Assembly (NCBI GenBank): GCA_964402225.1 | Contig: CAYOBQ010000017.1 | Span: 10,349-74,348 of the forward strand | Direction: 5' to 3' | Origin: an uncultured Nannocystaceae bacterium | GTDB lineage: Bacteria > Myxococcota_A > Bradymonadia > UBA7976 > UBA1532 | DNA length: 64,000 nucleotides | Shown here: positions 45,545-59,146 of the stretch, in pieces | Position numbering within the stretch: the stretch's first letter is position 1 | Layout of the letters: every line of letters starts with the position of its first letter | Notes under the pieces: generated by a model | Databases searched by the model: none | What the model saw: the letters and a program-made list of their open reading frames with translations, nothing else | Told to the model about the DNA's origin: nothing | Program-made: the position numbers and the translations under genes

Positions 45545-46183
45545 ATGCCTTGGTGGTGGATCACGATGTCGCTCTTCGGCCTCTTCGCGCGACCGGTCTG
45601 CGAGCCGGGGCCGGAGGCCCTCCGCTTGCGCGCCACGCTGGTGGCATCGACCGGGCCATCCTCGATGGTGGTCGAGCCGGACGATGGGCTCCCGCGGGTG
45701 GTCGCCGAGGGCGGGCAGATTCGCGGCTATCGGGTGGAACGTATCGGGCGTGGGGGGGCGACCCTGGGCCGCGCGGGTCGCTGCTGGCGGTTGACGCGGC
45801 GCGCACGATCGTTGGTCGAGCGCGGTGTCGAGCGTCCGCGGCCCAAGGGGGTCGAGGTCGACGTGGGTCGGGGCGCCAAGGTCGATCGGGCGACGCTCGA
45901 CCGGCTGCTCGAAGATCCGAGCGCGCTTCGAAGGGACATCCGCGTTCGCTTTGTTCGGCGGGGCGACGATCGGTTCCTGATGGTCACGCGGGTGCGCCGA
46001 GACGGGATCTTCGGGCGCATCGGGCTGCGCCGTGGGGACCGGCTGGTGGGGATCGATGGGCGCCGGGTGGAGAGCCCCAACGACGCGCTGGCGGTGCTCT
46101 CGTCCTTCCTCGACACGGGGCGCGCGGAGGTGGTCGTGCGGCGGGGGCGCGCGGTGAAGGTCTTCGAGGCTCGCGTCGAGTGA
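45545..46183 (+). CDS. GspC-like protein with PDZ domain
   Basis: N-terminal hydrophobic segment, LRLRATLVA....S.VV, C-terminal GIFGRIGLRRGDRL..IDG...ESP.DAL (PDZ). No other T2SS genes nearby. Confidence 0.6.
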   Translation: MPWWWITMSLFGLFARPVCEPGPEALRLRATLVASTGPSSMVVEPDDGLPRVVAEGGQIRGYRVERIGRGGATLGRAGRCWRLTRRARSLVERGVERPRPKGVEVDVGRGAKVDRATLDRLLEDPSALRRDIRVRFVRRGDDRFLMVTRVRRDGIFGRIGLRRGDRLVGIDGRRVESPNDALAVLSSFLDTGRAEVVVRRGRAVKVFEARVE

Positions 46184-47256: not shown

Positions 47257-47685
47257 CTAGCAGTCCGGGACTTCGCAGGTCGCCTCGATCTGGCAGGTGT
47301 TGGGGACCTCGCAGGTGGCGGCGATCTCGCACGTCTCGGGGACCCAGCACTCGAGGGGGATCTGGCACTCTCGGGGGAACTCGCACCGGAGGTTGCCGGT
47401 GAAGAGGCTGCCGACACAATCGAGGCCCCGCTGGAGGGCTGCCTGGAGGCCCGCCGGGCTGAGCACGGAGAGCAGCTCCGTCCCGCACTCCGCAGCGCTG
47501 ACCACCGTCTCCGATCCACAAGCCACCGCGTCCTCGACCCACTTCTGACCGCATTCGGCGGCGCTGGTGACGAGCTCGGTGCCACACTCCGCGGCGCTGG
47601 TGACCAGGTCGGCGCCGCACTGGGCGACGCTGGTCACGGTCTCGTAGCCGCACTGCGCCGCGCTGGTGACCCACTCGGTGCCGCA
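47257..47685 (-). repeat. Seven 11-aa CG repeats (33-nt period) and a terminal ~6-aa Cys-periodic tract
   Basis: CGTEWVTSAAQ/CGYETVTSVAQ/CGADLVTSAAE/CGTELVTSAAE/CGQKWVEDAVA/CGSETVVSAAE/CGTELL; CEFPRE-CQIPLE-CWVPET-CEIAAT-CEVPNT-CQIEAT-CEVPDC. Confidence 0.9.
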
Positions 47686-48597
47686 GGCGATGGTGGCGAG
47701 CAGCGTGGAGTGCGCCACGATGAGATCCACCGGCACGCCGAGGTTCATGCGGAGGGGGTTGTCACAGTGGCCCTGGACGTGGACCGCGTAGAGCCGCCCG
47801 TCGTTGCCGAGCACGCCGGAGCCGGAGCTGCCGGGCTCGGTGTCGATGTCGCGGTAGCCGAGGAAGCCGGGGAAGCTCCTGATCTGGCGCCCGGCGTCTA
47901 CCTGCTTGGGCTCACCGCTGGGGTGCTGGATGATCGCCGCGGCCCGCGGGGCGCCGCGGCCCAGGCGGGTCACGCCGAACCGGTCGCCGCGGCGCCGCTC
48001 GATGCGCAGGATCGCGTAGTCGAGGACGCCGGCCATCCGGGCGCCGTCCTCGACGACCTCCAGGACCCGGCGTCGGATCTCGCGACGCGGGTTGCCCGAG
48101 GGGTCGTTCTGGAAGTTGAAGACCACCACCCGCCGCCGGATGTTGCGGTCGATGCAGTGACTCGCCGTGAGGAACAGGTTCTGGTCGATGAGCGTGCCGC
48201 TGCAGAACTTGCTGGTGCTGCCGTCGCGGTTGGTGGCCGCCAGCGCCCCCACCGCCCGCTGCCGCGCGCCGACGAAGCCGTTGCTGAAGCCGAGGTTGGT
48301 GTAGCGCCCGTCGTATCGCTCGACGTGCTGCAAGTCGTCGCTGATCCCGCAGATGGCCTCGGCGCCGATGTCGAAGAGGAAGCCGGCGGGGTTCGCCAGC
48401 TTGCGGGCGAACTGCGCGTTGCCCTTGGGGATCGAGGAACGTCGGCGTGCGAGGCGGGCCCGGTCCGACTTCGAGTCCTCCGTCTCGTCGACGGTCGGGG
48501 CCTCACCGGTGAACTCGTTGTCGAGGTCTTCGATGTCGCCACAGGCGCTGAGCAGGCAGACGGCGAGCGCCGCCACGATGGTGTGGGTGGAACGCAT
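47257..48597 (-). CDS. Lipoprotein trypsin-like (S1/V8-type) serine protease with C-terminal Cys-periodic repeats
   Basis: GGAG RBS; lipobox LSAC; FLTASHC (His), DYAIL (Asp), DTEPGSSGS (Ser). Confidence 0.88.
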   Translation of the reverse strand: MRSTHTIVAALAVCLLSACGDIEDLDNEFTGEAPTVDETEDSKSDRARLARRRSSIPKGNAQFARKLANPAGFLFDIGAEAICGISDDLQHVERYDGRYTNLGFSNGFVGARQRAVGALAATNRDGSTSKFCSGTLIDQNLFLTASHCIDRNIRRRVVVFNFQNDPSGNPRREIRRRVLEVVEDGARMAGVLDYAILRIERRRGDRFGVTRLGRGAPRAAAIIQHPSGEPKQVDAGRQIRSFPGFLGYRDIDTEPGSSGSGVLGNDGRLYAVHVQGHCDNPLRMNLGVPVDLIVAHSTLLATIACGTEWVTSAAQCGYETVTSVAQCGADLVTSAAECGTELVTSAAECGQKWVEDAVACGSETVVSAAECGTELLSVLSPAGLQAALQRGLDCVGSLFTGNLRCEFPRECQIPLECWVPETCEIAATCEVPNTCQIEATCEVPDC

Positions 48598-48633
48598 GGT
48601 CTCTCTCCAGTGATTGGGTGCGCTGCTTTGGGA

Positions 48634-48650
48634 TTGCACCCGCCGTGCCA
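48634..48650 (-). promoter_or_regulatory. Sigma54 -24/-12 promoter upstream of the serine protease
   Basis: Minus strand TGGCAC-GGCGG-GTGCAA: GG and GC at exact consensus spacing, ~37 nt upstream of the ATG. Confidence 0.75.
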
Positions 48651-48735
48651 GCCGCCGGGCCCCAAACCACCGTTCGGGGCGTGTTCCATCCGTGTGCCAT
48701 CGAACGTTCGGCGCACCCGGGGTATCCTCCCGCGG

Positions 48736-50061
48736 GTGGACGTCACGCTCACGGAGAACACCGTCGACGGCGGCTTCGGCGAGGCCCGGCTGGATCTCGC
48801 CCTGACGGTGGTTGCCCACGCGGCGTCGGCAGCGCTGGGCACCCGTCGAGTCCTGGCGGATGGGGAGGGCGTCGAGCTCGGTCGCGGCGGCCTCGCCCTG
48901 GGCGCGGGCGTACTCGACGACGCCCGCCTCTCCCGCCAACACCTGGAGCTGGTCCGCGACGGGTGGTGCGTGCGCGCGCGGGATCTCGGCAGCCGCAACG
49001 GTACGACCGTCAACGGCGCCCCCGTGGGCACAGCGACGCTGGTGCCCGGCGACGTGTTGGGGGCCGGCGCCCTCCTGCTGCTCGTCCACCGCACGCGCCG
49101 GGCGTACCGGGTGCCCCACTCCCCGACCCTCGTCGGGGCCAGCGCCGAGCTGGCCGACGTGCTGCGCGAGGTCGAGCAGGTGGCGCCCCGCGACACGACG
49201 ACCCTGGTGCTGGGCGAGACGGGCGTGGGCAAGGAGCTGGTCGCCCGCGAGATCCATCGGCTGAGCGGTCGCTCCGGGCGCTTCGTCGCCCTCAACTGCG
49301 GCGCCGTCGGCAAGGGGCTGCTGCACAGCGAGCTCTTCGGTCACGCGCGCGGCGCCTTCTCCGGGGCGACCGATCGGCGCGCGGGGCTGGTCGCCGCGGC
49401 CGCGGGCGGGACCCTCTTCCTCGACGAGGTGGGCGACGCGCCCCCCGACTTCCAGGTCGCTCTGCTGCGCCTCCTCCAGGACCGTGAGTATCGCCCCGTC
49501 GGCGACGACGAGGTGCGCCGGACGGACGCGCGCTTCGTCGCGGCGACCCATCAGCCGCTCCACGCACAGGCCGAGGCGGGGCGCTTCCGCAAGGACCTCT
49601 GCGCGCGCCTGTCCCGGTGGGTCGTGCACGTCCCGGCCCTGCACGATCGCCGGGCCGACATCCCGCTGCTCCTCGACGCGTTCGCCCGCCGACATGCGGG
49701 CCGTCCGATGCGCCCGACACGCCCTCTGGTGCTGGCGCTTTTGCGTCACGATTGGCCCGGCAACGTGCGCGAGCTCGACGCGCTGGTGGAGCGCCTCTGT
49801 GTCGCGGCAGGCGACGGTGATCGGCTGGAGCTGGACCCCAAGGTCGCGGCCCTGCTCGAGCCCCGCCCGACACCGCACGCCGAGCCCGAGCCCGAGCGCC
49901 GCTACTTCTCCGGCGAGCGCCCCGATCCAGAGACGCTCCGGGCCCACCTCCGCGCGCACCGCGGCAACGTCAAGGCAACCGCCCTCGCCCTCGGGGTGGG
50001 TCGCAACACCCTCTACCGCTGGTTGCGCGAGGCCGGCGTCGACGTCGCGGACTACCGGTGA
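48736..50061 (+). CDS. FHA-domain sigma54-dependent enhancer-binding protein (Fis-type HTH)
   Basis: LSRQH...RDLGSRNGT.VNG (FHA); GETGVGKE, ELFGHARGAFSGA, LFLDEVG, WPGNVREL, GNV..TA..LGV.RNTLYR. Start codon approximate. Confidence 0.9.
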   Translation: MDVTLTENTVDGGFGEARLDLALTVVAHAASAALGTRRVLADGEGVELGRGGLALGAGVLDDARLSRQHLELVRDGWCVRARDLGSRNGTTVNGAPVGTATLVPGDVLGAGALLLLVHRTRRAYRVPHSPTLVGASAELADVLREVEQVAPRDTTTLVLGETGVGKELVAREIHRLSGRSGRFVALNCGAVGKGLLHSELFGHARGAFSGATDRRAGLVAAAAGGTLFLDEVGDAPPDFQVALLRLLQDREYRPVGDDEVRRTDARFVAATHQPLHAQAEAGRFRKDLCARLSRWVVHVPALHDRRADIPLLLDAFARRHAGRPMRPTRPLVLALLRHDWPGNVRELDALVERLCVAAGDGDRLELDPKVAALLEPRPTPHAEPEPERRYFSGERPDPETLRAHLRAHRGNVKATALALGVGRNTLYRWLREAGVDVADYR

Positions 50062-53000
50062 GGCTCGGCGGTTTCGAACTGCACGAGGCGGTCGGGCGGG
50101 GAGCGATGGGGATCGTCTGGCGCGGGGAGGGGGCCGGCCTGCCCGTGGCCGTGAAGGTGCTCACCGAGGCGCGCGCTCGGGATCCGGCCTACATCGCCGC
50201 CTTCACGCGCGAGATTCACGCCGTCGCCAGGCTGCGGCATCCGGGCGTGGTGACGGTCTATGACCACGGTGTCGTCCCACCCGATACGGGCGCGCTGGTC
50301 GCCGGCGCCCCGTACCTGGTGATGGAGCTGGCCCGAAGCTCGCTGGCCGCGGGGGCGCGCATCGCGACCTGGGGCGCGGTGCGCGACATCCTCGTGGACG
50401 TCCTCGGCGCCCTCGCCGCGGCCCACGCCCGGGGTCTCGTCCACCGCGATCTGAAGCCCGCCAACGTGCTGCTCTGCGGCGGCCGACTCAAGCTGTCCGA
50501 CTTCGGCCTCGCGTGTCCCGGCGGTCGTCGCGCGCCCTTCGCCCTCACCGGCGGCAGCCCCGGCTACATGGCGCCCGAGCAACTCCTCGGCGCGTGGCGG
50601 GACTTCGGCCCGTGGACGGATCTCTACGCCACGGGCTGCCTCGCCTGGTTCCTCTGCACCGGGGCGCGCCCCTTCGCCGATCGGGCCACCGCTCAGCTCG
50701 CCCACCTTCACCTCAACGAGGCGGTCCCGGCGCTGCGCCCCCGCATGCCCGTCCCCGCGGGCTTCACCGAGTGGGTCGCCACGCTGCTGCAGAAGGCGCC
50801 GACGGACCGCTTCGGCCACGCCGCCGACGCCACCGCCGCCCTGCTCGCCCTGGATGGAGAGCCGCTGACCGAGGTGGCGCTGACGGCGCCGGTGCCGATC
50901 AGCGCGACCGTCACGCTCGCCGACGACGCGCCGGACACCTTCGCCATGCCCACCACGCCCCGGGATGCGCCGGCTCCTCGCCCGGCGTGGCCCGCCGCCC
51001 CCGGACACCGGCCGCAGCCGACGATTCGTCTCCCGGCGAGCTGGCGCAGCGAACCGCCGGAGCCGCCACCACCGAACCTGGGCCTGGGCCTCTACGGCCT
51101 GCGCGAGACGCCCGTCGTCGGGCGCTCCCGTGAGCAGCGCGCGCTGTGGCAGGCCCTGCGCCGGGTCATCGACACGCGCCGGCCGGGGATGGTGGTCCTG
51201 CGTGGCCTGCCAGGCTTCGGGAAGTCTCGCCTCGCCGAGTGGTTGTGCCACCGGACCGCCGAGCTGGGCGCCGCCCGTTGGCTCGCCGTGCGCCACGACC
51301 CGCTGGGCGGCCCCGAGCACGGGCTGCGCCCCGCGATCGCCGCCGCCCTCCGGTGCGCCGACCTCTCGCGCGACGACATCGAGCGGCGGCTGGTCCATTG
51401 GCTGCGCCGCTTCGACGCCGTGGCCGAGGCCGACGCCGAGGCCCTCGCCGACTTCCTGGCCGACGCGTGGGACGGGTCCACTGGCGCCCGCGACGCGCTG
51501 CTATCACGGCTGCTGGCGCGGATGAGCGCCGACCGGCCGCTGGTGCTGTGGCTCGATGATCTCCAATGGGGCGCAGACGCGGCGGCCTTTGTCGGCGCGC
51601 TCCTGGCCGATCCGCTGGATCTCGCCCCGCGCGTCCTGGTCGTGGCCACCACCACCGGGGCCGCGCCTGAGAGTTCGGCGCCAGAGACTTCGTCGGTGCT
51701 CGATGTCGGCCCCCTGCCGCCGGAGTCGTGGCCGGTGCTCGTGCGGGAGCTGCTCGGGCTCGACGGAGAGCTCGCGCGCCGTGTCTGCGAGCGCACGGCG
51801 GGGCACCCGCTCTTCGCGACGCAGCTCGTCGGTGACTGGGTGCGCCGCGAGGTGCTGGTCCCGGGCGGTCGCGGCTACCGGTTGAAGCGAGGCGCGAGGG
51901 CGGACCTTCCCGATGACCTCCACGGCGTCTGGTCCGAGCGAGTCCTCGAGGTGCTGCGCGGGCTGCCATCAACGGCGCGGGCCGGCCTGGAGATCGCCGC
52001 GGCGCTCGGTCGCTCCGTGAGCGCCCGGGAGTGGGACGGCGCCTGCGACGAGCCCCCCGGCGCGCTGGTCGACCGCCTCGTGGGCTCGGGGCTGGCGGAC
52101 CGCACGCCAGAAGGCTGGGTCTTCACCCACGCGGTCCTGCGCGAGAGCGTGGAGCGCCTCGCCGATGAGGCGGGCCGCGCCGCCGGGCACCACCGCCGGT
52201 GCGCCGCGGTGGTCGACGATCCGGTCCGCCGCGGACGCCACCTGTTGCTCGCCGGGGACGGCGCCGCGGCGCTGGCGCCCCTCCTCGAGGGCGCGCGCGG
52301 CCGGGTGGCCGCCGGGGACTACGCCGGGGCCGGCGTCCTGCTCGACGAGCGAGAGGCGGCGGTGGACGCGAGCCAGACGCCGGGGGCGGCCCTCGACGGT
52401 TGGCTGCTCTACAGCCGGCTCCGCACCGCCACCGGCCAGCTCGCCGCCGCGGAGTCCTGGGCACGCCGCGCCGAGGCCGTCGCCACAGACGATCCGCAGC
52501 GCGCCCGCGCCCGGTATCGTCTCGGCAAGGTCGCCCAGGCGCGGGGTGACTTCGAGGTGGCCACCGCGCGGCTACGCGGCGCGCGGGCTCTCGGCGACAA
52601 GGCGCTCGGGGGGCACTGCGAGATCGATCTCGGGTGGGTCCACCTCGAGCAGGGCGAGTTGGCGGCGGCGGCGGCGTGCTTCGAGGCGGCGCTCCCGGTC
52701 TTCCACGACGAGCCGCGCACGGCGGCGCTCTGTCTCCGAAGCCTGGGCGTCGCCGAGCGTCGCGCGGGCCGACTCGAGGCCGCCGACGCCCACACCCAGC
52801 GGGCCCTCGCGCTGTACGGCGACGTCCGCGCGCGTGCCGGGGCCGCCGACTGCCTCAACTCGCTGGGGGAGATCGCCCGCGCCGCAGGCGACGCCGCCCG
52901 CGCCGAACGTCACTACCGCGCGGCGCTGGAACGACAACGCGCGCTGGGATCGAGCAACGCCGTCTACTGCGAGACGAACCTGGGTCTGGTGCTGCTCGGT

Positions 53001-53285
53001 CGGGGGGAGGACGCGGAGGCCGAGGTGGTCCTGGCGGCGGCGGAGGGGCGCGCGCAACGGACTGGTCGCGGGGGGCTGGCGGCGGCCATCGCGGCCCATC
53101 GCCTCGCCGCCCGGGACTGGTCGGCGGAGGCCTTCGAGGCGGTCGCGCGGCGGCTCGAGGAGACCGGCTACGTCGATCCAGACGTCGCGTGGTCGCTGCG
53201 GCGCGCGGCGAAGCGGGCCCCCGACGTGGAGTGGGCGCAACGCGCCCTCCACGAGGCCGACCGCCACGAAGTGACGCTCACTTGA
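50058..53285 (+). CDS. Ser/Thr kinase - STAND/AAA ATPase - TPR multidomain protein
   Basis: GRGAMG.V, HRDLKPAN, DFG, YMAPE; GLPGFGKSRL (Walker A), LWLDDLQW (Walker B); C-terminal TPRs. Confidence 0.9.
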   Translation: MRLGGFELHEAVGRGAMGIVWRGEGAGLPVAVKVLTEARARDPAYIAAFTREIHAVARLRHPGVVTVYDHGVVPPDTGALVAGAPYLVMELARSSLAAGARIATWGAVRDILVDVLGALAAAHARGLVHRDLKPANVLLCGGRLKLSDFGLACPGGRRAPFALTGGSPGYMAPEQLLGAWRDFGPWTDLYATGCLAWFLCTGARPFADRATAQLAHLHLNEAVPALRPRMPVPAGFTEWVATLLQKAPTDRFGHAADATAALLALDGEPLTEVALTAPVPISATVTLADDAPDTFAMPTTPRDAPAPRPAWPAAPGHRPQPTIRLPASWRSEPPEPPPPNLGLGLYGLRETPVVGRSREQRALWQALRRVIDTRRPGMVVLRGLPGFGKSRLAEWLCHRTAELGAARWLAVRHDPLGGPEHGLRPAIAAALRCADLSRDDIERRLVHWLRRFDAVAEADAEALADFLADAWDGSTGARDALLSRLLARMSADRPLVLWLDDLQWGADAAAFVGALLADPLDLAPRVLVVATTTGAAPESSAPETSSVLDVGPLPPESWPVLVRELLGLDGELARRVCERTAGHPLFATQLVGDWVRREVLVPGGRGYRLKRGARADLPDDLHGVWSERVLEVLRGLPSTARAGLEIAAALGRSVSAREWDGACDEPPGALVDRLVGSGLADRTPEGWVFTHAVLRESVERLADEAGRAAGHHRRCAAVVDDPVRRGRHLLLAGDGAAALAPLLEGARGRVAAGDYAGAGVLLDEREAAVDASQTPGAALDGWLLYSRLRTATGQLAAAESWARRAEAVATDDPQRARARYRLGKVAQARGDFEVATARLRGARALGDKALGGHCEIDLGWVHLEQGELAAAAACFEAALPVFHDEPRTAALCLRSLGVAERRAGRLEAADAHTQRALALYGDVRARAGAADCLNSLGEIARAAGDAARAERHYRAALERQRALGSSNAVYCETNLGLVLLGRGEDAEAEVVLAAAEGRAQRTGRGGLAAAIAAHRLAARDWSAEAFEAVARRLEETGYVDPDVAWSLRRAAKRAPDVEWAQRALHEADRHEVTLT

Positions 53286-54252
53286 CCCGGGGCAACAGCC
53301 AATCGAGGAAGGGCTCTGCGCTCGCGAGGTCGGCGATCAGCGGGCCGCCCACCTCCACCACCTCCGCGCGCAGCGGCGCGGCGTCTGAGCCCAAGAGCTC
53401 GCGCACCGTGCGCGCGCCCTCGACCTCCAAGGCGGCGCGCACCTCCGCCAGGATCCCATCGCGGATCTCGGGCCGCTCCAGGTTGTGCGCCAGGAGCCCT
53501 GGCAGGACCTCCACCAGATCGTCGATGGACAGCTTGAGCTGCGCCTTGGTGACCTTCGCCGTCGGCGTCTTCATCGCCTCGTCGTAGATCTGGAGCTTGG
53601 TGCGCCCGAGCTGTCGAGCCGTCTCCTGGCTCGACAGGATCGCCACCAGGCGCTCCAACATGACGTTCATCGAGCCGTCGATGAAGGTGCGCGCGGCCCG
53701 GCTGGCCTGCTGTTGCACCTGCTCGCCGATGGCCCCCAGCACGCCGCCGCCCGCCGCCCGCTTCGCGAAGCCGAAGGCCGAGCGAGCGACGCTGCCGCCC
53801 ATGCCGCCGCCGGATCCCCCCGGTCGCAGCGTCTCGATGAAGCGGCTCAGCGTCTCCTCGATGACCGACTTGAGCATGTGCTTCACGGCGCCTTGCTGCA
53901 CCAGCTTGTCGAGGAAGCGCCGCTCGAACTCCACCGGGCGGGCCGCGAGCGAGCGCAGCTCGGCCTTCGCCTCCGCCGTCAGCCAGTCGCCGACCAGATC
54001 GCCGCGGGCCTTCGCGCGCTCGTGCTCACGCTCCAGGAAGGGCCCCAGATGCTCGCGCGCCCAACGCTCGATGTGGGGCTCGGCCAGCGCGCGCTCGATC
54101 TGCGCGAGCAGGCGATCCGGATCGACGTAGCGCGCCACCGGCTGGTCGATGGCGTGGTCGTACCAGACCCCGACGAGCTCGCCAGCGTCGTCGACGTTCC
54201 CCAAGGACTTCAACAGCTTCTGGACCGCGCGCGGCCACTTTCGCTCAGCCAT
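53278..54252 (-). CDS. Hypothetical alpha-helical protein
   Basis: Strong coding bias, no recognised motif; Gly-rich amphipathic segment mid-protein. Confidence 0.65.
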   Translation of the reverse strand: MAERKWPRAVQKLLKSLGNVDDAGELVGVWYDHAIDQPVARYVDPDRLLAQIERALAEPHIERWAREHLGPFLEREHERAKARGDLVGDWLTAEAKAELRSLAARPVEFERRFLDKLVQQGAVKHMLKSVIEETLSRFIETLRPGGSGGGMGGSVARSAFGFAKRAAGGGVLGAIGEQVQQQASRAARTFIDGSMNVMLERLVAILSSQETARQLGRTKLQIYDEAMKTPTAKVTKAQLKLSIDDLVEVLPGLLAHNLERPEIRDGILAEVRAALEVEGARTVRELLGSDAAPLRAEVVEVGGPLIADLASAEPFLDWLLPRVK

Positions 54253-54409
54253 GGAGGCAGGTTAGGGCCGCGGCGGAGACAACTCCAGGGTGTTGCGCTC
54301 AGTCGCCTCCGGGTTCGAGCCCGCGGCGAGACGCGCCCGGAGACGCGCTTCGAGGTCATCGATCGCGCGCTGGGCCACGGTTGGGATGGGTCCCACGCCC
54401 TCGACCTCG

Positions 54410-55669
54410 CTACGGCAACAGCGGGCGCCCCGCTACGCCGAGCTCGGCCCGGCGGACGCCGCGCTCATCGGCGAAGGGCGCGATGGCGAGCATGGAGATG
54501 TACAGCGTGGTGGCGCCGAAGGGCTCGGTGCCGAAGGCGAGGTTGGCGAAGATCGCCTTCTCGTCGGCGACGAGCAGCCGGGTCGCCTCCTGACCACCCG
54601 CCGGCAGGACCCACACCGCGCTCTCCTCGAGCATGAAGCCCTCGGTGGTGTCGGCGATGAAGTACAGGTTGCCCTCGAGGTCGAAGGCGACGCCGTCTCC
54701 GAAGAGGCCGATGTTGTCGAGGACGCGCTCGCGTTCGCCGAAGCCGTCGGCCGCGACGTCGAGGACGAAGAGCTGGGCGATGGGCGCCGTGGCCTCGACG
54801 GTGTCTGCGTGGTTGCACAAGAGCGCGGTGTTCTCGGTGACCCCCCAGAGGCGGCCGTCGTCGTCGAAGGCGACGCCGTTGGGGCCGCCCTCGGTGGGGA
54901 GGTCGAAGGCGTGGCGGGCGACGACCTCGCCGGCGCCGGGGTCGTAGCGCAGGAGCTCACCGGCGCAGGGGTCGGTCACGAAGATGTGGCCGCCTGGCCC
55001 GACCGCGACGTAGTTCGGGGCGACGAGCCCGTCTAGCGCCGTGCTCACCTCCCCCTCGACGATCTTGCGCAGCGCGCCGGCCCCGGCGTCGGCGACCCAC
55101 AGCGCCCCAGAGGTGTCCACGGCGACACCGAGCACCGACTCGCCCATGGCGTCGCCCGTCAGGGGGATCCTCGAGGCGCTCCCGTCGGGGGCCACGCTCA
55201 GCAGACCGCCGGGGACGCCGAGCACCATCGCGTCGCCCACGAAGGCGAGGTCCTCGGTGCTCCCGGAGACGGCCTCCGACTCGAGGAACGCTTCCACGTC
55301 GCCGAAGACCTCGTCTTCGAGGGGCGCCGGCAGGCTCGGCGTAAGGGTCACGAGCTGCTCGATGGCCTCGTCTTCGACGGCGACGCGCAGCAGATTGAGG
55401 ACGGGAAGCTCGCCGAGGGTCCAGGTGACGGCGCCGCCCTCGATGGCGACGTCGCCACCGCCACGCTCGACGGTGGCGACGATGGGGACCTCGACCGCGG
55501 CGCCGTCGGTGTCCACGACCTCGACGGACAGCACGACGGCCTCGCCTGTCGCTGGCTCGAGCGGTGCGTTGGAGATCCGCAGGCTCGCGGGGGCGGCGGG
55601 CTCGGCGGCGCCGTCGTCACAGCCCGTGAGGCAGAAGAGGACTACTCCGAGTCGGGCCAAAGGAGCCAT
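54410..55669 (-). CDS. Lipoprotein with Ig-like N-domain and SMP-30/gluconolactonase-like beta-propeller
   Basis: Lipobox LTGC; TEDLAF, PNYVAV, GPNGVAFD, GDGVAFDLEGNLY, ANLAFG. Confidence 0.75.
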   Translation of the reverse strand: MAPLARLGVVLFCLTGCDDGAAEPAAPASLRISNAPLEPATGEAVVLSVEVVDTDGAAVEVPIVATVERGGGDVAIEGGAVTWTLGELPVLNLLRVAVEDEAIEQLVTLTPSLPAPLEDEVFGDVEAFLESEAVSGSTEDLAFVGDAMVLGVPGGLLSVAPDGSASRIPLTGDAMGESVLGVAVDTSGALWVADAGAGALRKIVEGEVSTALDGLVAPNYVAVGPGGHIFVTDPCAGELLRYDPGAGEVVARHAFDLPTEGGPNGVAFDDDGRLWGVTENTALLCNHADTVEATAPIAQLFVLDVAADGFGERERVLDNIGLFGDGVAFDLEGNLYFIADTTEGFMLEESAVWVLPAGGQEATRLLVADEKAIFANLAFGTEPFGATTLYISMLAIAPFADERGVRRAELGVAGRPLLP

Positions 55670-56682
55670 GTGATCCCTCCGGCGAGGGCGGCCCCGCCGC
55701 TGATGTAGAGGATGTCGGCGGCCTGTGCCTGGCTGCGCCAGCGGTCGTCTAGCTCGTCGTACTCGGCGCGGTCCGCGGCGAGGTTCGAGGTGCGCGCGAG
55801 GTCGTCGGCCTGCCGGTTGGTCTGCATCGCCCGATAGCCGAAGAAGCCACCCGCGCCGAGGGCCGCGGAGCCCACGGCGGCCAAGGCCCAGCCGGGCCAG
55901 CGCGCCATCGCGCCCGGACGCTCGTAGCCCTCCTTGGGGATCAGCGTGATCGCGCGCTCGAGCGTCTGGCCGTCTTCGATGGTGACCCTTCCGAGGTGGC
56001 GCTCGAACCCGTCGAGGGCGAGCTCGAGCACGTAGCTGCGGGCGTCGAGCTGGAAGTCCGTCAGGGGCGCAGCCCCCACCACCTCTCCGTCGAGGATGAC
56101 CGCCGCGCCGGGTGGCACCGAGCTCACGCTCAACACGCCGCCGACGCTGGCGGGGGACATCACGACCGTGATCTCGTAGCGCTCGCCCCGCTCGGCGTCG
56201 AGGGTCCGGGACTCGTCGCCGTAGCCATCGAGCTCGAGATCGATCTGCCGGCGCCCGGGCTGGTCGGTGCCCTTCCACGGCGTGCGCCCGACGGTGCGCC
56301 CGTCGATGCGCACCGCGGCCCCCGGGGGGGAGGAGGTGATCTCGAAGACCGGCCGGGCGAGGGCGAGTGTGACCCGCTCGACGCACTCCCGGGCGGCCCG
56401 CCGGGTGGACTCCGGCACCCCCGGGGCGTTGAGGGCGATCTTGCACTGGACGAGGGCCTGATCGGGCTGACCGAGCTGCTCGTAGCAGCGGCCGATGTTG
56501 ACGTCGAGGTTGGGGTGGGGGACGAGCCGGTTGGCCTCGCGGAACTTGGCGAGGGCCTTCTCGTACTGCTTGGCGCGGAACGCCTTCGCCGCTGTGCGGC
56601 TGAGGTCGCGGGCGCGCTGCACGTCGTTCGGTGCGCTCCACGCGGGGGCGATCAGCACGCAGAGGAGGAGGAGTCTTCTCAC
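55642..56682 (-). CDS. TPR plus two PEGA domain protein with C-terminal hydrophobic hairpin
   Basis: Signal peptide; KQYEKAL.KF...NIGRCYE; SSPPGA.VRIDG..VG.TP and SVPPGA.VILDG..VG.AP. Confidence 0.82.
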   Translation of the reverse strand: MRRLLLLCVLIAPAWSAPNDVQRARDLSRTAAKAFRAKQYEKALAKFREANRLVPHPNLDVNIGRCYEQLGQPDQALVQCKIALNAPGVPESTRRAARECVERVTLALARPVFEITSSPPGAAVRIDGRTVGRTPWKGTDQPGRRQIDLELDGYGDESRTLDAERGERYEITVVMSPASVGGVLSVSSVPPGAAVILDGEVVGAAPLTDFQLDARSYVLELALDGFERHLGRVTIEDGQTLERAITLIPKEGYERPGAMARWPGWALAAVGSAALGAGGFFGYRAMQTNRQADDLARTSNLAADRAEYDELDDRWRSQAQAADILYISGGAALAGGITWLLWPDSE

Positions 56683-56689
56683 GCGGGCA

Positions 56690-58048
56690 TTACGGCACGA
56701 GTTCGAAGATCGGTTCCAGCTTCGCGCGCACCTTGCCGTCCTTGCGCACGCTCGCGCGCAGCTTCACAGGGGAGTAACCGGCCCGCTTCAGCGTGAGATT
56801 CAGCGCCCGGCCGGACATCGGGCGCCGGAGAGCGAGGGGCGTGCGGCCCAGGGCTCGGCCGCGCTCGTAGACCACGGCGCCGGCGGGATCGGAGCTGACC
56901 TTCACCGTCACGTAGCGTGTCTTGGGCTTGGGCGCGGCGTCGACGACCTCCGGGACGCCAGCGTCGGTGGCCGTGGGCGCGGCGGCGTCGATGACCTTGG
57001 GCGCCGCGGCGTCGACCTCCGCGACGTCGACCGCGGCGCGGTCGGGACGCGCCGCGTCGACGACGTCAATCTGCGCCGCGTCGGCGGCCACCGCGGTGGG
57101 ATCCGGCCGCGTCATCCACCAGCCCAAGGCGGCGAGGATGATCGCCGCGACGGCCGCGATGGTGCCCCGGCTGGTGCCGCTGGACACGGTCGCGGCGTCG
57201 GCGCGCACCCCGGCGGCAAACGCGTTGATGTCTCGGAAACGATCGTCGGGGTCCTTGGCGAGGGCCTTCTCGACGGCGGCGGCGAGGTTGCGCGGCACGT
57301 CCGGGGCGCGCTTGCGGAGCGGCTCCGGGGCTTCGTGGGCCTGCTTGTAGAGGATCGCCATCGGGGTCGGCCCATCGAAGGGCGGATCACCGACCAACGC
57401 CTGATAGGCGATGACGGCCAGCGAGTACTGGTCGGCGCGGCCGTCGATCTCGGCCTCGGAGAGCATCTCCGGCGGCATGTACTTGGGCGTCCCCAGGGCG
57501 GTGGAGGTGGTCTGCGTGTTCTCGTCGACGGACTTCACGATCCCGAGATCCATCACCGTGACGCGGCCGTCGGGCCCGACCATCATGTTGCCGGGCTTGA
57601 TGTCGCGATGAATCAGCCCGTTTCGGTGGAGCGCGTCGAGGGCGTCGCAGACCTCGATCACGATGCGCCGGACGCGGTCGGCTTCGAGCTTGCCCGCGGA
57701 CTTGAGCAGCGCGGAGAGCGTCTGCCCCTCCACGAACTTCATGACCATGTAGTAGACGCCCGCCTCGCGTCCGACGGCGTAGACGGGGACCAGCGCCGTG
57801 TGCTCGACGCGGGCCAGGGAGCGCGCCTCGCGCATGAAGCGGCTGAGCACAGAGCCGTCCGCGTCGCTGGCCCGCAGCGCCTTGATCGCCACGGGTCGGC
57901 TCAACGTCAGATCGGTGCCGCGGTAGACCACCCCCATCCCGCCGCGGCCCACCTCGTCGTCGATCCGATAACGGCTCTCGAGGATGGCGCCGGGTTGGAA
58001 CGGCTGGGGCTCAGCGACGTCGGGCGGGGCTTCGCTTTCTTCCATCAC
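56690..58048 (-). CDS. Membrane Ser/Thr kinase with C-terminal PEGA domain
   Basis: GRGGMGVVY, HRDIKPGN, DLG, GTPKYMPPE; TM; SSDPAGAVVY...LGRTP. Confidence 0.9.
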   Translation of the reverse strand: MMEESEAPPDVAEPQPFQPGAILESRYRIDDEVGRGGMGVVYRGTDLTLSRPVAIKALRASDADGSVLSRFMREARSLARVEHTALVPVYAVGREAGVYYMVMKFVEGQTLSALLKSAGKLEADRVRRIVIEVCDALDALHRNGLIHRDIKPGNMMVGPDGRVTVMDLGIVKSVDENTQTTSTALGTPKYMPPEMLSEAEIDGRADQYSLAVIAYQALVGDPPFDGPTPMAILYKQAHEAPEPLRKRAPDVPRNLAAAVEKALAKDPDDRFRDINAFAAGVRADAATVSSGTSRGTIAAVAAIILAALGWWMTRPDPTAVAADAAQIDVVDAARPDRAAVDVAEVDAAAPKVIDAAAPTATDAGVPEVVDAAPKPKTRYVTVKVSSDPAGAVVYERGRALGRTPLALRRPMSGRALNLTLKRAGYSPVKLRASVRKDGKVRAKLEPIFELVP

Positions 58049-58096
58049 TCATCCGCGCCGCTTATGGTGTCACGATAGTCTCGCTGTCGGTACTTC

Positions 58097-59146
58097 GTGA
58101 GCCTCTCGACCCATCCATGCCCCCGCTGCGGCGCCGCTGTACTCAGCGACTCCACCCATTGCGGGGGCTGTGGCCAACACCAGATCGACCGGGACGATCC
58201 CCCCGAGGCGTGGGTCGGCCGGGTGATCGACGGCAAGTACGAGATCCTCGAGGTCGTCGGCGTCGGCGGGATGGGCATGGTCTTTCGGGCCCGCCGCACG
58301 CTGGTGGGCGACGAGGTGGCCTTGAAGGTCCTGTTCCCTCGCTTCCTCGAGAGCGAGCTTCAGCGGCGCCTCTTCCAGGACGAGGCCGTGGCCAGCGCCC
58401 GGCTGTCGCATCCCAACGTCGTCACGGTCTTCGACGCCGAGCTCGATCCCGAGCAAGGCTACGCCTACATCGCGATGGAGCTGCTGCGCGGTCGCACCTA
58501 CAAGGTGCTCTTGCGCGAGGAGGCCCCGATGCCGCCGGAGGTCGTCCTGCCGCTGATGGAGCAGGTCTGCGCGGGCCTCGTGGCGGCCCATCAGGCGCGG
58601 GTCATCCACCGCGACCTGAAGCCCGACAACATCTTCCTCGAGGAGCGCGAGGGTGAGGCCCCGCGGGTCAAGCTCGTCGACTTCGGCATCGCCGCCATGC
58701 TCGACGCCGACGAGCGCGACGAGGACCAGCGCCGCCTCCTCGGCACGCTGCGCTACATGGCCCCCGAGCAATGCCGCGTCGGCCCGGTCGACGAGCGCGC
58801 CGATCTCTACGCCCTCGGAGTCGTGATGTACGAGTCCCTCACGCGCCGTCGAGCGACGGGGAAGACCATCTCCGCCGTGCTCACCGACGAGGTCGTCCCG
58901 CCGAACATGCTGCTCGAAGAGGACCAGCACCTCCCCCACGCCCTGGAGAACCTGGTGATGCGGCTCCTGGCGAAGGACCCCGCCGGGCGCCCCGGATCAG
59001 CCGTGGAGGTGAAGCGCCTGCTCGCCGGTGTGAACGCGCCAGCGCCACCGCCGGCGCCCCCCGAGGAGCGAGCCGCTTGGGTGTGGCCCGCGGTGGTCGG
59101 CTTGGGCCTGCTGGCCGGCGTCGTCTGGGCGCTGTTGCGCACATGA
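58097..59146 (+). CDS. Ser/Thr kinase with N-terminal Zn-ribbon and C-terminal TM anchor
   Basis: CPRC...CGGC; GVGGMG.V, HRDLKPDN, DFG, GTLRYMAPE. Confidence 0.9.
   Translation: MSLSTHPCPRCGAAVLSDSTHCGGCGQHQIDRDDPPEAWVGRVIDGKYEILEVVGVGGMGMVFRARRTLVGDEVALKVLFPRFLESELQRRLFQDEAVASARLSHPNVVTVFDAELDPEQGYAYIAMELLRGRTYKVLLREEAPMPPEVVLPLMEQVCAGLVAAHQARVIHRDLKPDNIFLEEREGEAPRVKLVDFGIAAMLDADERDEDQRRLLGTLRYMAPEQCRVGPVDERADLYALGVVMYESLTRRRATGKTISAVLTDEVVPPNMLLEEDQHLPHALENLVMRLLAKDPAGRPGSAVEVKRLLAGVNAPAPPPAPPEERAAWVWPAVVGLGLLAGVVWALLRT

Follow-up and report, generated by a model that had tools for sequence, protein, structure and literature searches.

A candidate phospho-threonine signalling unit of a kinase-STAND-TPR protein, an FHA-type sigma54 activator and a phased enhancer-like array in an uncultured Nannocystaceae bacterium

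Genomes of myxobacteria contain dozens of genes for sigma54 activators and hundreds for eukaryote-like kinases, and the connection between these two networks has been a question since activators with a forkhead-associated (FHA) domain came to attention in 2005. A locus of an uncultured Nannocystaceae bacterium raises this question in a compact form: can a Ser/Thr kinase, a sigma54 activator and a single promoter constitute one dedicated signalling unit? The locus lies in a stretch of 64 kb (here called the window, positions 10349-74348 of contig C17) and comprises three genes, one for a secreted protease on the minus strand and, divergent from it on the plus strand, one for an activator with an FHA domain and one for a protein that joins a Hanks Ser/Thr kinase to a STAND NTPase and a tetratricopeptide repeat (TPR) array. 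An initial annotation of the window regarded this arrangement as a self-contained sigma54 circuit in which an NLR-like sensor drives the expression of a lipoprotein protease through Thr phosphorylation. With moderate confidence, and on the basis of sequence comparison, we interpret the locus as a three-protein, one-promoter signalling unit that would resemble NtrB/NtrC with phospho-threonine in the place of phospho-aspartate.

The genome of 9.4 Mb (70.8% G+C, 358 contigs) is the one that represents its genus, and its relatives are named as Myxococcota, Polyangiaceae or Bradymonadia metagenome-assembled genomes. It encodes 57 sigma54 activators, of which 20 carry an FHA domain, and 166 Hanks kinases. 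The layout that the initial annotation had read from the window was confirmed throughout (Table 1). The divergent gap, estimated at about 140 nt, measures 138 nt (48598-48735), and it contains on its minus strand the -24/-12 element, followed by the ribosome-binding site and the ATG of the protease gene. The TGA of the activator gene (50059-50061) is overlapped by the GTG of the kinase gene at 50058 (GTGA), and the Pfam domains of both proteins agree with the functions given to them. The claim that all cis and trans parts are found within 6 kb holds for the specific parts, but not for sigma54 itself, as rpoN is located elsewhere in the genome, on contig C65. The locus is thus self-contained for its specific parts only.

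Table 1. Features of the locus and of its surroundings (positions in the window).
Feature	Position	Strand	Basis or remark
Lipoprotein S1 (V8/Glu-endopeptidase-like) serine protease, 446 aa, with Cys-periodic C-terminal tail	47257..48597	-	translation, Pfam
Ribosome-binding site GGAGAGAG	48601..48608 (48608-48601)	-	read from sequence; 3 nt before protease ATG (48597)
Predicted sigma54 -24/-12 promoter TGGCACGGCGGGTGCA	48635..48650 (48650-48635)	-	pattern and matrix match; predicted start near 48624
Candidate enhancer (upstream activating sequence), four GGAACR-like units, ~11-nt period	48670..48710	.	matrix, register, arrays of relatives
Array unit CCGTTCG	48670-76		position -26 in promoter register
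Array unit GTGTTCC	48681-87		position -37 in promoter register
Array unit GTGTGCC	48692-98		position -48 in promoter register
Array unit, palindrome CGAACGTTCG	48701-10		position -60 in promoter register
FHA-type sigma54 enhancer-binding protein, 441 aa (P0004)	48736..50061	+	Pfam, conserved residues, AlphaFold2 (AF2); database start GTG 48736
T4-L-T6-E7, window form of the N-terminal T-x-T-D motif, candidate phospho-acceptor (pTxxD/E)	48745..48756	+	conservation in homologues
Hanks Ser/Thr kinase + STAND NTPase + TPR array, 1075 aa	50058..53285	+	Pfam, conserved residues, AF2/Foldseek
324-aa protein without assigned function	53278-54252	-	convergent with kinase gene (four-gene set); overlaps its stop by 8 nt
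NHL-repeat protein	54410-55660	-	member of four-gene set
TPR+PEGA protein	55642-56682	-	member of four-gene set
Pkinase+PEGA protein	56690-58048	-	member of four-gene set
Zn-ribbon kinase	58097-59146		divergent from four-gene set
Small radical-SAM protein, 291 aa	46220-47095	+	convergent with protease gene
PDZ-domain protein	45545-46183	+	convergent with protease gene

The promoter provides the firmest starting point. The element upstream of the protease gene is the sole match of TGGCAC-N6-TGCW in the window, where 0.10 would be expected. Genome-wide the pattern has 68 matches, of which 59 are intergenic, and 47 of the 68 are found at most 250 nt, mostly 30-70 nt, upstream of a co-oriented gene. 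After training on these intergenic sites, a matrix converges on the textbook TGGCACG-N4-TTGCW, and 126 of its 131 matches of at least 16 bits (96%) are intergenic. With 21.7 bits the protease promoter ranks 14th in the genome, in which approximately 130-180 sigma54 promoters are credible, and between 44 and 60 kb of the window it is the sole match above 11 bits. A distance of 37 nt separates the end of its -12 element from the protease ATG, within the range typical for the genome. Scans of the region around it for sigma70-like consensus sequences, terminators and Rfam families yielded no matches. By the genome's own statistics, the predicted protease promoter is real.

The divergently encoded activator consists of a disordered tail (residues 1-18), an FHA domain (19-121), an AAA+ domain (132-367) and a C-terminal HTH_8 (approximately 401-431). 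Pfam recognises FHA, Sigma54_activat, AAA_lid_14 and HTH_8, with scores of 4.8e-56 for PF00158 and 8.5e-11 for PF00498. Among 120 homologues there is conservation of the AAA+ motifs GETGVGKE, LFLDEVG, RFVAAT and FRKDL, which include Walker A, Walker B and the arginine fingers, and the residues that bind phospho-threonine in the FHA domain (R50, S66, H69, N88 and G89) do not vary across 82 sequences. The AF2 model has a pLDDT of 94, with 97-98 in the FHA beta-sandwich (residues 19-121). Its matches in the Protein Data Bank (PDB), among them ZraR, FleQ, NtrC and PspF, concern the AAA+ domain only, and no solved structure among these matches spans the FHA activator beyond that domain. Judged by the phospho-threonine-binding, Walker and arginine-finger residues that it has kept, the activator is intact.

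The tail in front of the FHA domain carries a T-x-T-D motif, in which T4 is found in 98, T6 in 70 and D7 in 52 of the 120 homologues. The segment falls into a stretch of low confidence in the AF2 model, without predicted structure. FHA ligands of the classical form have a Thr with an acidic residue three positions further on (+3), and a disordered Thr tail preceding an FHA domain is the arrangement of GarA/OdhI. We propose for these two reasons that the tail is the phospho-acceptor of the activator, with T4 and T6 as the candidate residues.

The closest relatives of the activator outside this genome are 51-58% identical (G017:C129, G006:C28, G003:C205 and G017:C205). These four, which represent three other genera, form a clade of 100% support together with the activator and a paralogue on contig C1, and it is the comparison within this clade that supports the proposed link between activator and promoter. 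A generic search of the gap for inverted and direct repeats returned chance-level pairs only. The array between the promoter and the activator gene was recognised from the orthologous locus L099 of G003, in which six GTGTTCC units with an exact spacing of 11 nt are situated 51 nt upstream of a sigma54 promoter of 18.5 bits, which serves the gene of an 889-aa lipoprotein just downstream of the activator. The unit GGAACAC or the palindrome GGAACGTTCC is likewise present upstream of both sigma54 promoters of L097 and of two promoters of L098, and in L100 downstream of the activator. In the window the corresponding motif is GTGTTCC-N4-GTGTGCC (48681-48698), flanked by the palindrome CGAACGTTCG and by CCGTTCG.

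A family-wide search for GTGTTCC-N4-GTGTTCC produced 12 matches, all in one genus, and none with the reversed control. In each of the four array loci newly found, a sigma54 promoter of 16.1-21.7 bits follows 32-53 nt downstream of the array and is in turn followed by a gene for a secreted protein or a lipoprotein. Counted from the T of TGGCAC, the units of nine related promoters start on a common lattice of -37/-48/-59/-70/-81/-92/-103. A unit matrix built solely from the arrays of other genomes, with the window left out, has its best match in the 64 kb at 48678 (minus strand, 14.1 bits), and the densest stretch of 70 nt starts at 48673, with 36.7 against 19.0 for the runner-up. Pairs of GTGTKCC with helical spacing occur twice in the entire genome (0.6 expected), and the pair of the window is the only one that is intergenic and linked to a promoter. 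In this organism a single, local target is therefore probable for the activator, which fits the notion of a self-contained circuit. The C1 paralogue, with the recognition helix LGVARSTYYRW versus LG[VI]GR[NT]TLYRW, has no array. A text search of the literature that combined the array sequence with sigma54 yielded no relevant result. We interpret the GGAACR array as the likely enhancer of the activator clade.

An alternative would be that the promoter is functional but served by one or several other activators, and that the FHA activator regulates distant genes and is adjacent by coincidence. The numbers of activators and of credible promoters in the genome leave room for this, only 40% of the activators have a promoter within 4 kb, and arrays in genus g4 are found at promoters far from any activator gene. 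However, the clade-specific array occurs at one promoter only in the genome, 31 nt from that promoter and 26-66 nt from the start codon of the activator, and we consider such a coincidence highly improbable. Since the array extends over the sequence immediately in front of the activator's start codon, autoregulation of the activator via the array is possible.

Further occurrences of the array motif deserve mention. A fifth GGAACR-like site, GGGTGGAACGCATG (48585-48598, plus strand, 11.8 bits), covers the start codon of the protease gene downstream of the promoter; it could be a chance match or an operator. In genus g4 (G017, G024), GGAACAC arrays with sigma54 promoters are present in L115 (8404-8488), L116 (6384-6480), L117 (8371-8478) and L118 (9389-9483). 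All four are distant from activator genes and drive genes for lipoproteins or secreted proteins, so that in this genus the module seems to have developed into a small regulon. In L098 (G006:C28, 1933-8272) an operon on the minus strand is divergent from the FHA activator and is faced by an array of GGAACGTTCC together with a weak -24/-12 element (14.6 bits). This operon encodes a secreted protein of 246 aa, a VWA protein, two lipoproteins and a caspase-like Peptidase_C14.

The third protein of the locus is composed of a Hanks kinase (residues 6-253), an AAA_16 domain (353-529) and a TPR array (approximately 720-1075), for which Pfam gives Pkinase, AAA_16 (6.9e-16) and TPR_12/TPR_MalT. The kinase motifs GRGAMG, HRDLKPAN, DFG and APE can all be read in the sequence, and K33, E52, D131, N136, D148 and the glycines of the P-loop are invariant in 20 relatives. 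With this full set of catalytic motifs the kinase looks active. The STAND portion retains Walker A (GLPGFGKS) and Walker B (LWLDD). In the AF2 model (pLDDT 83), the kinase domain matches PknB of Mycobacterium tuberculosis in Foldseek with TM-scores of about 0.8-0.88 (normalised by target length), including the complex of PknB with its FHA substrate GarA (6i2p), and for 6mfv, a STAND-TPR protein, the match to the model extends over 756 columns (E 5.7e-13). By its modelled fold the protein is STAND/NLR-like, as the initial annotation had it; the label describes an architecture and not an immune role. A search with PADLOC for a known anti-phage defence system was negative, as its matches were confined to the level of domains (generic kinase to PD-T4-6/mad6, AAA+ to RtcR-like models).

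Is this kinase the partner of the activator? A review is available on how activators and Ser/Thr kinases have expanded in myxobacteria and on the micro-synteny around their kinase genes (PMC8538405). In the present genome a Hanks kinase gene is adjacent to 10 of the 20 FHA activators, versus one of the 37 activators without FHA domain (Fisher's test, 3.8e-5; 5.4% for random genes), which indicates that FHA activators are linked to kinases as a class. Synteny, which the initial annotation had named as a check, points in the same direction: a Pkinase-AAA_16-TPR gene adjoins the activator in all four outside loci of the clade. Its placement varies between these loci, being convergent in one, one gene away in another and divergent in two. 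In the kinase tree the closest branch to the kinase of the window is its sister from G017:C129 (99/97), and a clade with 100/100 support unites the remaining three. The seven kinase-STAND paralogues of the genome that do not adjoin an activator fall elsewhere. This branching order is congruent with that of the activator tree. Congruent trees, together with an adjacency kept through rearrangement, provide good evidence for a functional kinase-activator pair. A joint duplication of kinase and activator within the genome was considered as well and rejected, as the C1 activator has an unrelated kinase and the kinase paralogues are without activators.

Several observations nevertheless weigh against a dedicated unit. 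The loop of the activator that contacts sigma54 reads GAFSGA (residues 206-211; 49351-49368, plus strand) and not the canonical GAFTGA; this form is the norm in the FHA subfamily (94 of 120 homologues) and is found in 12 of the 57 activators of the genome. The array of the window is degenerate, with a perfect GGAACAC in one of four units. No orthologue of the protease was found in a matching context, its best relatives being at most 46% identical over the catalytic half and located in other contexts, so the conservation of the promoter holds for the module and not for the protease gene. From the side of the kinase the association does not hold generally: among its full-length relatives outside this genome only three of 25 have an activator within 6 kb, and none of the approximately seven paralogues within it lies near one. 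The activator on C1, which at 60% identity is the nearest paralogue, has for its part an unrelated kinase of 497 aa. In addition, two further Hanks kinase genes are encoded within 9 kb, at a distance of 3-6 kb (Table 1), which together with the total of 166 in the genome makes cross-talk possible.

The observations on the kinases also speak for a reading in which promoter, array and activator form a real unit, but the FHA domain reads phospho-threonine made by another of the many Hanks kinases, such as the two encoded nearby, or one on a different partner protein, given that the kinase-STAND-TPR family usually does not adjoin an activator. This explanation appears distinctly unlikely to us in view of the overlap of the two genes, which suggests translational coupling, of an adjacency maintained in all related loci despite their rearranged order, and of the congruence between both trees.

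Other activators of the genome show different combinations of these domains. Four FHA activators, on C8, C10, C51 and C270, form a clade (98% support), and each adjoins a small Hanks kinase of 367-426 aa; several members have sigma54 promoters within 4 kb. This points to cognate kinases that differ from clade to clade as a general trait of FHA activators. An operon on C7 (25109-30248) encodes a sigma54 activator with a short N-terminus and no FHA domain, followed by a 1209-aa Pkinase-AAA_16/NACHT-like protein. On C137 (489-4559) a STAND-TPR protein without kinase domain is fused to a sigma54 activator (approximately 1280 aa).

If kinase and activator work together as we propose, signalling would start with the detection of a ligand by the TPR array of the cytoplasmic kinase-STAND-TPR protein. 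Nucleotide-dependent oligomerisation of the STAND domain would then gather the kinase domains and result in their mutual activation. The kinase may phosphorylate the T-x-T-(D/E) tail of the co-translated activator, or may present a phospho-threonine of its own for docking, and binding of phospho-threonine by the FHA domain would alter the assembly state of the AAA+ ring. The activator, bound to the GGAACR array (approximately -26 to -60 from the -24 element) through its Fis-type HTH, would finally remodel the sigma54-RNA polymerase at TGGCACG-N4-GTGCA, and the protease gene would be transcribed from about 48624. The phosphorylation link between kinase and activator, the sign of control and the role of the protease are what we infer here from the sequences.

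The sign of control may also be the opposite one, in that phosphorylation of the tail leads to intramolecular binding by the FHA domain and shuts the activator off, and the protease is made while the sensor is idle. The layout of tail and FHA domain resembles that of GarA/OdhI, in which self-binding is inhibitory, and the PknB-GarA complex is among the top fold matches of the kinase; NtrC1 and DctD are likewise held off by their N-terminal domains. On the other hand, STAND sensors that act by induced proximity usually turn outputs on. The sequence is not decisive in this respect, and we regard a negative control as rather unlikely.

More broadly, and tentatively, the kinase-STAND-TPR protein, the FHA activator and the phased array could represent a dedicated, co-inherited phospho-threonine counterpart of NtrB/NtrC, a portable module for the control of secreted weapons or enzymes that differ between lineages. 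Such a counterpart would need neither a DNA loop nor IHF, because its units would keep a fixed helical register relative to the -24 element. The cargo differs from locus to locus: a protease in the window, and elsewhere a ricin-type lectin, lipoproteins of unknown type, and an operon that ends in a VWA protein and a caspase-like peptidase. Export is common to all predicted target products of the module, which are secreted proteins or lipoproteins. We interpret the module as a portable switch for secreted factors; its ecological role is a matter of guessing.

The protease of the window matches Trypsin_2 (9e-13) and Trypsin (8e-10) in Pfam and has the lipobox LLSAC as its export signal (lipoprotein signal MRSTHTIVAALAVCLLSAC followed by G), in agreement with its initial annotation as a lipoprotein protease. 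The motifs TASHC, DYAIL and GSSGSG provide the His/Asp/Ser triad, which is assigned by motif only. Its homologues, with at most 46% identity over the catalytic half, are named V8-like Glu-specific endopeptidases. That it acts as an exo-enzyme in predation or competition is our guess. The tail of the protease (residues ~305-446; 47257-47685, minus strand) has a Cys period of 11-12 aa (CGxExVTSAAxCG), which then changes to 6 aa (CExPxx). A tail of this type is also present on a 492-aa paralogue (C26:28468-29946, 42% identical) and, in other Myxococcota, on Peptidase_M23 proteins (P0231, P0238) and proteins without Pfam domain. Attached to such varied proteins, it looks like a mobile module of secreted proteins.

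The proposed unit can be compared with several known systems. FHA-domain sigma54 enhancer-binding proteins were reportedly described from Myxococcus xanthus by Jelsbak, Givskov and Kaiser in PNAS in 2005, who are said to have already proposed a Ser/Thr kinase input to activators of this type. Both cases share the order of FHA, sigma54 AAA+ and HTH domains, a Myxococcota genome rich in Hanks kinases, and the proposed logic from Ser/Thr kinase via FHA domain to sigma54 transcription. By comparison, the present locus adds a kinase-STAND-TPR partner, a phased GGAACR array and the T-x-T-D tail, and its output is a single adjacent secreted protease, in contrast to developmental genes in M. xanthus. 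We know of no partner, enhancer or phospho-acceptor that is established for the Myxococcus FHA activators. While FHA-type sigma54 activators have thus been known since 2005, a putative partner, the phasing of the enhancer and a candidate phospho-site are what is added here.

With NtrB/NtrC the locus shares a sensor kinase and an AAA+ activator that are encoded together, as well as tandem sites upstream of a -24/-12 promoter. It differs in having neither histidine kinase nor receiver domain, the proposed input being phospho-threonine read by the FHA domain, and its sensor is a cytoplasmic STAND-TPR protein. The array is moreover unusually near to the promoter (approximately -26 to -110 from the -24 element) and in helical register. 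The actinobacterial PknB/PknG-GarA (OdhI) system likewise combines a Hanks kinase with a disordered Thr-rich tail followed by an FHA domain, and the kinase model matches PknB-GarA, but GarA binds metabolic enzymes directly, whereas the FHA domain of the present activator is joined to a transcription ATPase and self-binding would be the corresponding step. A P-loop NOD (AAA_16) followed by a TPR/SUPR array is known from MalT, AfsR, PH0952 (6mfv, the fold match) and M. tuberculosis PknK, and PknK has a Hanks kinase at its N-terminus, as does the kinase protein of the window. The outputs of MalT, AfsR and PknK are sigma70-type and DNA-binding, in contrast to an output via a separate FHA-sigma54 activator.

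In the surroundings of the locus, a set of four minus-strand genes is convergent with the kinase gene and is followed by the divergent gene of a Zn-ribbon kinase (together 53278-59146; Table 1). A TPR/PEGA protein is also encoded at the C1 locus of the paralogous activator (36% identical over 160 aa). For the radical-SAM and PDZ genes on the other side no connection to the circuit was found. A minus-strand open reading frame of 900 aa (47257-49959) unites the protease with an antisense shadow frame of the activator gene. It is judged an artefact beyond the protease ATG, because the codon log-likelihood of the shadow frame is 0.118 per codon versus 0.397 for the activator frame. Gene calling based on GC3 and on GC1-GC2 chose this fusion over the activator gene and was discarded; a caller based on codon log-likelihood resolved the case. 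The gene calls of the genome are from the latter, which leaves approximately 11% of the genome non-coding.

For the question of how kinases and activators are connected in myxobacteria, the locus and its relatives provide a small and testable example, with a candidate kinase partner, a predicted phospho-site, a phasing rule for the enhancer, and one promoter with one output gene. As all of its specific parts fit into 6 kb, reconstruction of the system as a reporter in a laboratory host would be feasible, and the reporter could serve to look for a ligand. It would represent a bacterial STAND (NLR-like) sensor that is wired to transcription via a kinase and not via a fused DNA-binding or killing domain.

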